A stretch of DNA of 64,000 nucleotides from a bacterium (lineage in GTDB: Bacteria; UBA8248). Both the position numbers and the translations under genes were made by a program. Positions 9,670-14,186 of this stretch are shown one piece after another. The notes beneath the pieces are model-generated. The model was not told the DNA's origin. It searched no databases and saw only the letters and a list, made by a program, of their open reading frames with translations. The number at the start of each line of letters is the position of its first letter. Positions within the stretch are counted from its first letter, which is position 1. The stretch lies in contig OZ241996.1 of the NCBI GenBank assembly GCA_965204535.1, positions 1,440,001 to 1,504,000 on the forward strand. The letters run 5' to 3'.

Positions 9670-9924
9670 TTAATTGACAGAAATTGAGATGTTGGCGAAT
9701 TTCAATACAATTTGAATCACAATCAACACGAGAAACATTGCCGTTCCCCAGCCCATGGCCTTGCTGATCTTGTTTTCAACGGCGCGCAACCGTTCGTCTA
9801 TTTTATCGATCCTCTCATCAAGTCGAGTGAAGCCCTGCATAATCCAATTCGATTCATTCGGAGGTGGAGTTGTCGGCTGTCTGGGCCCGATATTTTCCGG
9901 GCTGACACTACCCTTACCTTCCAT
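9670..9924 (-). CDS. Small hypothetical protein, coiled coil plus C-terminal TM helix
   Basis: RLDERIDKIDERLRAVENKI heptads followed by a hydrophobic stretch; overlaps the upstream ORF. Confidence 0.7.
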   Translation of the reverse strand: MEGKGSVSPENIGPRQPTTPPPNESNWIMQGFTRLDERIDKIDERLRAVENKISKAMGWGTAMFLVLIVIQIVLKFANISISVN

Positions 9925-10195
9925 TGGCGCTCAACTTCACGCTAATCCACTCCCAAACTTCCGAGTTGTAGCGTCCCCAATAATTTGTTACAGGAATAAC
10001 GATTCCCGAAGTTGCAGGTTCTTCATCTCCGAGGCCAATTTTTGAAGCTAGCTGGCGGGTAGTTTCCCCCTCTGTAGCAACAAAAAAAGTATTGTCATCG
10101 TCATAATACCTGTCGCTATAGCGCTGTTCTAGTTTCCTTCTTACCAGCGCCGGGTCAGAGATGTTGAAGGCTACAAATACCTGCATCCTCGGCAT
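9914..10195 (-). CDS. Small hypothetical protein
   Basis: 93 aa, AAAGGAG RBS directly upstream, lower GC than flanks. Confidence 0.7.
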   Translation of the reverse strand: MPRMQVFVAFNISDPALVRRKLEQRYSDRYYDDDNTFFVATEGETTRQLASKIGLGDEEPATSGIVIPVTNYWGRYNSEVWEWISVKLSANGR

Positions 10196-10301: not shown

Positions 10302-11072
10302 CTACCCCTCCCGCTCCCACATCCGCCACCGCACGATGATCGCCCCGAACACCAGGACGAGCACCGCGCTCGCGAGATATGCGGCGCGCACCGGGCCGAA
10401 CCAGAGGCTGTCCGCGCGGAAGCCGCTCACCGCGGCGCGCCCCAAGGAGTAGAGGACGAAGTAGAGGCAGAAGATGAAGCCCGGCTTGTGGTTCGTGAGC
10501 CTCAAGCGTCTTAAGACGAAGAACCAGAGGAGGTTCAGGAGAAGCTCGTATATCATCACGGGGTGCGTCGCCTGTCCGGGAAACTCCCGGCCCGCGATGG
10601 AGGTCATCGGAAACTCCACGCCCCAGGGCATCGCCGTCGGCACGCCGTGGGCATCGCCGTTCATGAAATTGCCGAAACGCCCGAACACCTGCCCCAGCAT
10701 GATGGCCGGCGCCACCGCGTCTGCGAACTCCCAGGTGGATACCGCGTGGTTTCTCAAATACAGATAGCCGGCCAGCACGCCGCCGAGGAGGCCGCCGTGT
10801 ATGGCGAGGCCCCCTTTCCAGATGGTGAAGACCTCCCACAGGGCGCTCCGGTAAAACTCCCAGTTGAAGAGGACGTAATAGATTCTCCCGCCCAGGATGC
10901 CGGCGAACATGACGAGGAGGCCGAAGTTCATCACCTCATCGGGCGTGATGGGCATTCCCTTGCGCGCGGCTTCCCTCCTCACCAGCCAGACGCCCGCCAG
11001 CACGGCGGCGACGTACATGAGTCCGTACCAGCGCAACGCGAAGGGGCCGATTTCGAATATGACGGGGCTCAA
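10302..11072 (-). CDS. lgt: Prolipoprotein diacylglyceryl transferase
   Basis: LRWYG, GGRIYYV, GGLAIHGG, GRFGNFMN, HP..IYE motifs; TTG start. Confidence 0.95.
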   Translation of the reverse strand: MSPVIFEIGPFALRWYGLMYVAAVLAGVWLVRREAARKGMPITPDEVMNFGLLVMFAGILGGRIYYVLFNWEFYRSALWEVFTIWKGGLAIHGGLLGGVLAGYLYLRNHAVSTWEFADAVAPAIMLGQVFGRFGNFMNGDAHGVPTAMPWGVEFPMTSIAGREFPGQATHPVMIYELLLNLLWFFVLRRLRLTNHKPGFIFCLYFVLYSLGRAAVSGFRADSLWFGPVRAAYLASAVLVLVFGAIIVRWRMWEREG

Positions 11073-11137: not shown

Positions 11138-11310
11138 GGGGTTGTTAAAAATGCGGAGAGGGAAAATTTGTTTGTGTGTAGGGGTCGCATACATGCGACC
11201 CTGGTTTTTTCTCACCCCCTACACGGGCCGCATATATGCGGCCCCTACAAAAACCGCCCCTTCCCCAATCGAGTCAAAGCCTCGCACATCGGATATTCTC
11301 CAACAACCCC
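11138..11310. mobile_element. MITE enclosing a REP doublet (family 2)
   Basis: ggggttgttaaaaa ... tccaacaacccc ends; gtaggggtcgcatacatgcgaccc (11178) and gggccgcatatatgcggcccctac (11225-11248). Confidence 0.8.
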
Positions 11311-11345: not shown

Positions 11346-12428
11346 TTATTTCGGGTGGCGGTAGATCACGCTCTCGGGAAAATAATCCTTCCAGCCGAAC
11401 CAGAACGCGAGCGTCGTGGACAGCTGATTCAACCTCGCGCCCGCAAGCGGCCCGTCCACGGCCAGGCCGGTCAGGCGCTGCCAGCGCGATCCCGTTTTCC
11501 TGTCCTTCATGAACCTGCACGCTGCGGCGCCCTTGGCCCCGCTCTCCGTGATGAGTTCGAACTCGAGCACCTCGCCCTTCAGGACGCGGTCGAAAACGAC
11601 GCCCGTGCCCGCGCCCTCGCAATAGGTGACGAGAACGTCCCGGCCGGCGAAGCGGTCGTTCACGACGCCCGCGCGGTTCAAGTCGGCGAACGGGTAGACC
11701 TTGGCGACCTGCTCGCCCTTTTCTTTCGGGGAATCGAGCGCAAGAGCCACCAGCAGGGTTTTGGGATGTAAGCGATTATCGCGGTATTTCTCGGGGATCA
11801 CGCCGGTCTGAGCGCTGTAGTAATAGCCCTCATACGGATCGCGTGAAGGGCTTCGGAAGGCGCCCCCCATGCCTTTCAGCTTTTTTTTCAGCACCAGGGT
11901 GTCGGGATAGAGCTGCTTCCATTCCGAATAGCGCATCATGGCGGCAGGGAACGTCTTCAAGCGCTCCCCCTTGAGCGGTCCGATGAGGCCCTCCCCCGTC
12001 AGATGGCTCCAGAGCGTGTCCGTCTGGCGGTCGTACATGATGAGCACGTTTTTCCAGAGTTTTCCCGAAACGCCGAAGCTGAGCTTTTTGTCCCCCAGGT
12101 TACGGTCATACACGATGGCCGTGTAGCAAAGCGGTCACCAGGTGACGGAGACGGCGCTCCCGCCCACGACGTCGTTCACGATCTCGTGCGAACTGAGCAG
12201 GGGGACGGAATAGGCCCGCTTGTCGCCTTTGATGTTGATCCCGATGACCATCTCGTTCGGCTGCATGAAGCCCTCGGCATCTTTCACGCTCGCGTATTCG
12301 GGCGCATCGATGGCGGGAATGCCGTCTTTGGGCAGCAGGGTGCGGATCTCGGTTTCGGGACTCGCGCCCGATAGAGCCGGGAATGTGAGGATGACCAGGG
12401 CGAATAGAACGCTTTTCATATGCGGCAT
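11346..12428 (-). CDS. DUF3179-family putative selenoprotein with signal peptide (in-frame UGA at 12135-12137)
   Basis: The 97-aa and 255-aa ORFs are in frame and joined by TGG TGA CCG CTT TGC = W-U-P-L-C, where the family CxxC motif is expected; KDGIPAID and HEIVND motifs; downstream hairpin. Confidence 0.85.
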
Positions 12429-12458
12429 GAAAATGCTCTCCTCAGGCGGCCTGAGCCG

Positions 12459-13880
12459 TTAGCGTTTGAATCCATGAAGCACGGTGAAAAATGTCCGCTC
12501 CCCGCGGTTCGTCCCGCGCACGACCTGGCCCAGGACGTTTGCGCCCGCCGGGATTTTTTTGAGCAACGCCTCGATGTCTTCGAGTTTTTCGATCGAGACG
12601 CGGACGGGCGTTTTCCCGTTTCCGGGCAGGCGGTAGGTCAGTCCGCGTATCACCATGCCCTCGCGCAGGCCGTCATAATAGGCCCTGCTGCCCTCATCCA
12701 CGCTACTGATATAAACGCCGCTGTCGGTTGTCAGATTGTTTTTTTCCTTGAGCTCATCGGTCAGGTTCTCAAGCGCCACACCGTAGTTTTTCCTGGTCTC
12801 GGGCTCATCGACCTTGGTGTTCCCCGCCAGAGTGCTCCTCGATTCCGGTTCCGGCAGACGGACCAGCTTGATCTTGAATTTCTTTCTTTGGGCATCGCGC
12901 ACCACTTCCACGGACACGTCGTCTCCCGGCGGCGTCCAGCCCACGAGCCGTTGGAGGTGGGCCGTATCCACGACGCTCGTGCCGCCGAGGCGGACGATGA
13001 CGTCCCCCATGCGGATGCCCGCCCCCTCCGCCGGCCCGTCCTTGAGCAAAGCGCCCACGAGCGCGCCCCTGGCTTTCGGGAGCCCCAGCAGGTAGGCCAT
13101 GTCCTGGCTGACCGGCTGGATGGTCACGCCCAGATAGCCACGCGGGAAGTTCCCGCTCCGTCTCAGGTATTTGATGACGTCTTTCGCCATGTTGACGGGA
13201 ATTGCGAACCCGATGCCGCTGCCGGGCGCCGGGATCGCCGTGTTGATGCCGATGACCTGGCCGTCGATGTTCACCAGGGGCCCGCCGCTGTTGCCCCGGT
13301 TGATGGCGGCGTCCGTCTGGATGAAATACTCATAGCGCGCGACGCCGACGCCGCTGCGCCCGATGCCGCTCACCACGCCCACCGTGAACGTCCTCGTGAT
13401 GCCGAACGGATCGCCCACGGCTATCGACCACTGCCCCACCTTCACCTTGTCGGAGTCTCCGAACGTCGCCACCGGCAGCTTGCGGTGCGGCTCGATTTTG
13501 ATGAGCGCGAGATCGGTATAGCGATCCGTGCCGACGATTTTCGCCCAATGCGCGGACTCATCCCAAAGGCGCACGCGCAGCCTGCGCGTATTGCTGACCA
13601 CGTGGTTGTTCGTGAGGATATATCCCGCCGGGTCGATGATGACGCCCGAACCCGAAGAGAAAGTCGGTATGTTCGGGTGGGGGGATTGGGGCGCCTGTTG
13701 CGCCGCTCCCTTGATTCTCTCCCCTTGTATGCTCACGACGGTCGGCTTCACATTTTCCGCAATACCGGTGAACGCCGCCTCGATCTTCCGCATGTAGTCG
13801 ATGCCCGGGTTCGCCTGTGCAGACGCAGCGAAACTCATGGACAAAATCAAAAGCATCGAAAGGATGAAGCGAAGAATCAT
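12459..13880 (-). CDS. HtrA/DegP (Do family) serine endoprotease with PDZ domains
   Basis: GSGVI, TNNHVV, DLALIK, QTDAAINRGNSGGPL motifs; signal peptide from MILRFILS. Confidence 0.93.
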   Translation of the reverse strand: MILRFILSMLLILSMSFAASAQANPGIDYMRKIEAAFTGIAENVKPTVVSIQGERIKGAAQQAPQSPHPNIPTFSSGSGVIIDPAGYILTNNHVVSNTRRLRVRLWDESAHWAKIVGTDRYTDLALIKIEPHRKLPVATFGDSDKVKVGQWSIAVGDPFGITRTFTVGVVSGIGRSGVGVARYEYFIQTDAAINRGNSGGPLVNIDGQVIGINTAIPAPGSGIGFAIPVNMAKDVIKYLRRSGNFPRGYLGVTIQPVSQDMAYLLGLPKARGALVGALLKDGPAEGAGIRMGDVIVRLGGTSVVDTAHLQRLVGWTPPGDDVSVEVVRDAQRKKFKIKLVRLPEPESRSTLAGNTKVDEPETRKNYGVALENLTDELKEKNNLTTDSGVYISSVDEGSRAYYDGLREGMVIRGLTYRLPGNGKTPVRVSIEKLEDIEALLKKIPAGANVLGQVVRGTNRGERTFFTVLHGFKR

Positions 13881-13982: not shown

Positions 13983-14186
13983 GGCTGTTGGAAAAAGCCC
14001 TCCTCGGTCGGAATTGACGACCGCCGTCATTCTGGGCGTCATTGCCACTCCTGTTGTAGGGGTCGCATACATGCGACCCGGCTTTTTTCGCCGCCCGTCA
14101 TGGGCCGCATATATGCGGCCCCTACACAAACCGTCGCCTCCCGAGTCGCGTCAAACCCTCGTTCATCAGGATTTTATCAACACCCC
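13983..14186. mobile_element. MITE enclosing a REP doublet (family 2)
   Basis: ggctgttggaaaaa ... ttttatcaacacccc ends; REPs at 14056 and 14102-14125 identical to the 11178 and 11225 copies. Confidence 0.75.

Follow-up and report, generated by a model that had tools for sequence, protein, structure and literature searches.

A DUF3179 gene of a UBA8248 bacterium with an in-frame TGA, predicted to encode an exported UxxC selenoprotein

Two open reading frames on the reverse strand of the window (the whole 64,000-nucleotide stretch of DNA analyzed here) are separated by a single TGA codon, which raises the question of whether this TGA is read through as selenocysteine and, if so, what kind of protein results. 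The initial annotation had joined the two frames through the context SVTW-U-PLCYT. Translation of the minus strand confirmed this: the gene (Table 1) consists of 97 codons, one TGA, 262 codons and a terminal TAA, and the TGA, codon 98 of 360 (...SVTW*PLCYT...), is the sole break in the frame. Standard ORF calling splits it into 12135-12428 and 11346-12113. The read-through product matched the Pfam family DUF3179 with 303 bits (gathering cut-off 27; E 2.9e-90) and the match spans the TGA, while no NCBIfam model matched the protein. The gene is present in a single copy in its own genome, and Haloferax volcanii has a homolog.

Table 1. Positions of the DUF3179 gene, its parts and its two neighbors, in window coordinates
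Feature	Positions	Strand	Basis or remark
DUF3179 (PF11376) selenoprotein gene (predicted), 360 aa, one in-frame TGA	11346..12428	-	translation and Pfam match
Shine-Dalgarno-like GAGGAG, 9 nt 5' of the ATG, inside the 30-nt gap after the htrA stop	12438..12443	-	sequence
Predicted cleavable signal peptide, residues 1-22	12363..12428	-	by eye; residues 1-20 of low pLDDT
TGA codon 98, predicted selenocysteine, the U of UxxC	12135..12137	-	frame and conservation
Cys101, second residue of the U-P-L-C motif	12126..12128	-	81/81 full-length homologs; DSSP: beta-hairpin turn
Putative SECIS hairpin, 7-pair stem (one C-A mismatch here), loop CGUGU	12103..12121	-	20 nt after the UGA
Repeat 1 (about residues 56-182), predicted Rieske-like, carries UxxC, without Fe-S ligand motifs	11883..12263	-	
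Repeat 2 (about residues 221-358), predicted Rieske-like, no UxxC; Cys270 at the U98-equivalent place	11355..11768	-	
HtrA/Do-family protease gene, upstream neighbor, lineage-limited	12459..13880	-	
lgt, downstream neighbor, lineage-limited	10302..11072	-	273 nt past the DUF3179 gene

The genome carries the machinery for selenocysteine incorporation. The selA gene (E 4.9e-172) adjoins selB (E 2.9e-116) on contig C2, selD is present and itself contains an in-frame TGA, and a tRNA-SeC(TCA) is found among 52 tRNAs in total. The same 52 tRNAs include no tRNA-Trp(TCA), and the sole tRNA-Trp reads CCA. The TGA is also conserved, although related sequences are not independent in any of the counts given here and below, whether of TGA, Cys, pairing, fusions or neighbors. 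Each of the 22 other genomes in the genus has a DUF3179 gene with exactly one TGA, at the same codon. In a sample biased to close relatives, the best 78 of 584 confirmed GTDB loci, the position is TGA in 75 and a Cys codon in three, and never TAA or TAG; these loci include Dehalococcoidia and Anaerolineae (Chloroflexota), Poribacteria, Binatia, Methylomirabilota and Acidobacteria. Among 81 full-length protein homologs, Cys stands opposite the TGA in 74 and Cys is found at position 101 in every one. In a set of 39 homologs the TGA column held 35 Cys, three Ser, one Gly and no Trp.

These observations bear on the alternative that the TGA is a real stop in a split gene or pseudogene, a tryptophan codon, or an assembly error. 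The closest database proteins are mostly C-terminal fragments of 230-260 aa that start after the TGA, as a real stop would predict, and the hairpin described below is not the lowest-energy fold of the single sequence. The fragments are, however, explained by gene callers cutting at the UGA. A stop or an error would also have to fall at the predicted catalytic Cys position in loci of several phyla without ever taking the form of TAA or TAG, and a tryptophan codon is at odds with both the homologs and the tRNA set, as well as with the neighboring loci, in which ordinary genes end in TGA. In contigs from four public runs no alternative base was listed for the codon or the hairpin, and the hairpin covaries. 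This alternative is scarcely credible. The initial annotation had named in advance a genome lacking Sec machinery, Trp rather than Cys aligned to the TGA, and a TGA unique to this assembly as findings against a selenoprotein; none of the three was observed, and the selenoprotein reading is strongly supported.

The hairpin that had been pointed out downstream of the UGA was examined as a candidate SECIS element. It is present as quoted: its arms occupy 12121-12115 and 12109-12103, and its loop 12114-12110. The bacterial SECIS model given in PMC13188914 has a loop of 3-9 nt, a stem of 4-16 bp, a G in the first two loop positions, a distance of 16-37 nt from the UGA and a minimum free energy of at most -7.5 kcal/mol. 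The present hairpin falls within that description, with a loop of 5 nt, 6 of 7 pairs, a distance of 20 nt and -9.4 kcal/mol when the hairpin is enforced. Folding of the single sequence with ViennaRNA nevertheless preferred another structure (-10.9 kcal/mol, z +1.05), so that the hairpin was not significant on this basis, and of the 130,151 in-frame TGAs that were scanned genome-wide, 14.7% are followed by a loosely defined SECIS-like pattern. For these two reasons only covariation was counted as evidence for a SECIS.

The alignment used for this purpose contained 82 of 97 distinct TGA sequences, with 12 near-identical congeners and three sequences of a divergent paralog clade left out. In it, 94.3% of cells were paired, compared with 80.9% in shuffled alignments. 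Covariation was 0.299 against 0.080 in shuffled controls, and it reached at most 0.089 in slid controls, which paired 26-44% of cells; the structure was derived from the present sequence, which biases the comparison with slid controls in its favor. Changes on both sides were seen in five of the seven pairs, a number reached by 3 of 500 shuffles. Over all 97 TGA sequences the same pairs form in 616 of 679 cells, as opposed to 25 of 49 cells in seven Cys-codon sequences. Codons 103-108 show zero synonymous variation in 26 close sequences (elsewhere in these genes Tyr is TAT in 147 of 333 cases), and residues 104 and 108 change jointly, as the pairing demands. The hairpin thus exceeds chance across the 82 homologous loci, though not in the single sequence, and the compensatory changes across phyla amount to strong comparative evidence for a putative SECIS. 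On these sequence-based grounds, UGA codon 98 is very likely decoded as selenocysteine by way of the downstream hairpin. The divergent paralog clade (L058-L060) belongs to the same family and reads Y-U-T-L-C, but the sequence downstream differs, and its SECIS has therefore probably evolved separately.

The selenoprotein status of the family is not new, and this gene is a further member of a listed family. DUF3179, with the motif UxxC/T, forms a row in the selenoprotein table of PMC9312934 and appears in the table of PMC13188914 under the heading ‘Predicted with high confidence’; the initial annotation was right that Sec-containing members have been reported. Both sources cite Zhang and Gladyshev 2007 (PMC1976440) for it, and DUF3179 is presumably the OS_HP1 of that study; PMC9230427 lists a DUF3179 protein without comment. 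In the literature searched, outside which most subscription journals lie, neither an assigned activity for DUF3179 nor a cluster-free Rieske-like selenoprotein was found. The family comprises 16,320 representatives at 50% identity (E up to 0.001). As the fragments and the TGA-bearing loci indicate, gene callers cut DUF3179 genes in two across many phyla, and because they do so, protein databases understate both the size of the family and how often its members carry Sec.

The nature of the protein was examined through a structure model of high confidence (pLDDT 91, pTM 0.88). Its two halves are duplicates of one another (hhalign probability 99.9% over 126 columns). In a wide structural search the first 45 rows were all Rieske-type domains: residues 238-343 aligned to 2qpz (Z 7.9, rmsd 3.3, 93 aligned) and residues 70-164 to 3gkq (Z 6.6, rmsd 2.6, 83 aligned). 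Foldseek likewise ranked Rieske ferredoxins and NirD-like subunits at the top by probability, whether the whole model or only its N-terminal domain was queried, at E values above 0.01. A search of PDB sequences with the family profile gave nothing below E 0.1, and profile-profile comparison (hhalign) with seven Rieske domains of the same genome gave non-significant probabilities of 0.8-13%. The model therefore likely contains two tandem Rieske-like beta domains; the fold is not proven, because Z is at most 7.9, in the range that the tool calls common, and no significant sequence-level link accompanies it.

A fold in common with Rieske domains does not in itself show a function. One possible consequence is that the protein is a true Rieske iron-sulfur electron carrier with selenocysteine as a cluster ligand, to which the structural matches lend some weight. 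Cysteine or selenocysteine is found at positions 98, 101, 270 and 304 and histidine at positions 3, 81, 142, 221 and 358, however, and neither of the cluster boxes C-x-H and C-x-x-H occurs anywhere in the chain. A low-probability alignment sets D309-R-K-T312 of repeat 2 on the Rieske C-P-x-H box. NirD-type Rieske-like subunits, which are not known to carry a cluster, are among the best matches. An iron-sulfur carrier is therefore highly improbable. In the model, U98-x-x-C101 lies where strand 91-98 turns into strand 103-108 (DSSP). No thioredoxin family is among the Pfam or structural matches listed for the protein, although absence from such a listing does not count against a thioredoxin fold, and the UxxC is placed in a beta-hairpin turn, not at the start of a helix. 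Of 26 close sequences, 23 retain Cys270, whereas the wider alignment does not conserve it.

A Sec/Cys pair, an invariant second Cys and predicted export together point to redox chemistry outside the membrane. The initial annotation had proposed an exported redox protein. This proposal is plausible and gains support from the fusions described below. The prediction of export was made by eye, from a basic n-region, a hydrophobic stretch and the site SGA|S, with no lipobox Cys and no twin Arg; these features are kept in close kin. Fusions were scanned in all 29 representatives of at least 475 aa among the best 150 of the 16,320 family hits. An AhpC-TSA/Redoxin (TlpA-type) domain was found in 13 of the 29, mostly with WCxxC, and the rest carried Fn3, VWA, Ig-like, beta-propeller or ArsP domains or nothing recognized. 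The fusions with thioredoxin are distant Cys-form relatives of the present gene, the TlpA-DUF3179 protein P0154 being one example. In one protein, P0124, a CcdA-like membrane domain, a TlpA-like domain and DUF3179 are joined in one chain; its DsbD label comes from a precomputed table, and a Pfam scan at 1e-7 gave just the TlpA-like and DUF3179 domains. When longer forms were sought by shared words, only three proteins were obtained, which is weak evidence either way.

The genome itself contains a CcdA-like gene with both Cys motifs (a weak match, E 6.3e-7) and several TlpA-like proteins with N-terminal hydrophobic segments. Together with the fusions and P0124, these genes suggest a terminal reductase that is recharged by CcdA and TlpA. 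The preferred reading, to which a probability of about 0.55 is given, is accordingly that of a putative exported selenol/thiol oxidoreductase acting at U98-P-L-C101. In this mechanism, U98 would attack an oxidized substrate outside the cytoplasmic membrane, which might be either an oxidized Cys or Met residue within a protein or a small compound that reacts with thiols. C101 would resolve the intermediate to a Se-S bond, and this bond would be re-reduced by a TlpA/ResA-type thioredoxin, itself fed by CcdA, as in CcdA-Etrx-MsrAB. No thioredoxin or ccdA gene neighbors this DUF3179 gene, and the three genes are unlinked in the genome; of the 78 closest loci, three have a TlpA-like gene in the vicinity and none has ccdA. 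The two clearest TlpA genes of the genome adjoin ccm genes, and their role may be confined to cytochrome c maturation. A TlpA-like protein (G000:C1:665937-666296, minus strand) has an N-terminal hydrophobic leader and a UxxC read through a TGA, and is a candidate for a Sec-bearing reductant of the DUF3179 protein.

The main rival to this redox reading is metal or metalloid handling. An exported selenoprotein of this kind would bind or detoxify As(III), Hg or Cu through a UxxC hairpin ‘knuckle’ together with the conserved H81, E82, N85 and D86, and would pass the metal on instead of carrying out disulfide exchange. D35, R109 and D133 are conserved as well. CPxC turns are common metal sites, and an ArsS-type radical SAM gene (DUF3641) lies in 5 of the 78 loci, in four phyla (one of the matches is weak, E 2e-9). 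Among the 29 long representatives, one carries a fused ArsP-type permease, and metal-binding predictions exist for some selenoprotein families in general (PMC13188914). The remaining 73 of the 78 loci have no ArsS neighbor, however, nor is one nearby in the window; each chain holds only one CxxC-type motif; and fusions to thioredoxin outnumber that to the permease by 13 to 1 among the 29. Metal handling is therefore considered unlikely. Two of the loci with an ArsS-type gene, L095 and L139 (Binatia and Acidobacteria), are islands in which DUF3179, a gene ending at TGA, the ArsS-type radical SAM gene and another gene stand together; by eye, the TGA-ending gene is presumably GrdB-like and the other mercuric-reductase-like.

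The influence of the two flanking genes on the interpretation was also considered, since the initial annotation had placed the gene between an HtrA protease gene and lgt, as is indeed the case (Table 1), and had suggested a role in envelope quality control. As a dedicated partner of HtrA and Lgt, the protein might reduce or reshuffle the Cys of HtrA clients or maintain the lipobox Cys in its reduced state for Lgt. In most of the lineage the three genes follow one another on the same strand as htrA-DUF3179-lgt, and in the window 30 nt separate the first two. Of the 22 congeneric loci, 20 have htrA beside the gene and 21 have lgt (one contig stops short); seven family- or order-level loci have both neighbors. 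The order is broken, however, in two congeners, in which a RidA gene lies directly upstream instead of htrA, and both genes are missing at the four family-level loci L062, L070, L084 and L170. At the more distant loci L084-L156 neither was found (0 of 73, with flanks of up to 6 kb and some short contigs), and the neighbors of distant homologs are unrelated housekeeping genes. A Pfam scan of 95 of 183 neighbor-cluster representatives from the 78 loci yielded no conserved operon; selD is nearby in five of these loci, all of Chloroflexota. Inherited gene order explains the arrangement as well as shared function does. A role in quality control with HtrA and Lgt is weakly supported, and a dedicated partnership is improbable.

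Among congeners, anywhere from about 50 to 750 nt separate DUF3179 from lgt. In the window this interval contains a short palindromic REP-like repeat (about 11200-11250), a similar copy of which lies upstream of htrA (about 14090-14130), and 49 exact and about 121 near copies occur genome-wide. Downstream of lgt, two small ORFs of 84 and 93 aa (9670-10195, minus strand) have no Pfam match. Sponge metatranscriptome contigs of related strains (two runs of one study) cover the gene, one spanning the TGA and one the htrA boundary; they were not used as evidence because such contigs show neither transcription nor a shared transcript.

Several further copies of the family were encountered. At L042 (G024:C478:13288-15556) two tandem DUF3179 genes, both with a TGA, lie between htrA and lgt. 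The copy at L044 (G023:C214:26311-27335) has a TGA and lies in three pieces in different frames, and is frameshifted or mis-assembled. Long DUF3179-like forms with a TGA and open frames of 617-729 codons were seen at L157 and L158 (G028:C1:992034 and G030:C4:549149), and at L157 the next gene, AhpD/CMD-like, is in turn split by a TGA. The genome under study looks selenoprotein-rich: a TGA lies inside 7 of its 12 Redoxin matches, and a scan by eye gave repeated CxxU and GxU-GSC motifs read through TGA, of which the CxxU motifs are taken to be of AhpD/CMD type and further cases to be SelW- and glutaredoxin-like. Its closest named relatives are MAGs labeled Nitrospinota, Nitrospinaceae or Ca. Tectomicrobia. 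According to BSepDB, three UBA8248 MAGs with such labels are among the ten most selenoprotein-rich genomes, with 48-54 selenoprotein genes (PMC13326102), and the present genome probably belongs with them.

Three known systems invite comparison. The tabulated DUF3179 selenoprotein family agrees with the present gene in its Pfam family, its UxxC motif, its one Sec and its downstream bacterial SECIS, and there is no difference in kind between the two. The DUF3179 entries of the reviews give no fold, location or partner, and to them the present analysis adds a predicted fold, a duplication, covariation of the SECIS and fusions with thioredoxin. Predictions as they are, the fold and fusion clues make the function testable.

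Rieske ferredoxins and NirD-type subunits (2qpz, 1vm9, 3gce, 3c0d) resemble the predicted beta fold of each half, with Z 6.6-7.9, rmsd 2.6-3.9 Å over 83-96 residues and 8-19% identity to Rieske/NirD-type structures. DUF3179 differs from them in its two tandem copies, its predicted export, the lack of Cys/His cluster ligands and the position of UxxC on another hairpin. It is tentatively suggested, as a possibility less likely than the general redox reading, that DUF3179 represents an unrecognized class of extracytoplasmic selenol/thiol reductases, in which duplicated Rieske domains gave up the Fe-S cluster for UxxC, the protein serves as the terminal enzyme of a CcdA-TlpA relay, and the lineage-specific Cys270 acts as an extra relay residue.

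The third system is CcdA-Etrx-MsrAB2 of Streptococcus pneumoniae, in which an extracellular terminal enzyme is re-reduced by a TlpA-type thioredoxin fed by CcdA (PMC3914529). Neither sequence nor fold searches identify DUF3179 as an Msr, and in this genome the three genes are not linked; the likeness lies in its fusion, elsewhere, to the same two kinds of domain.
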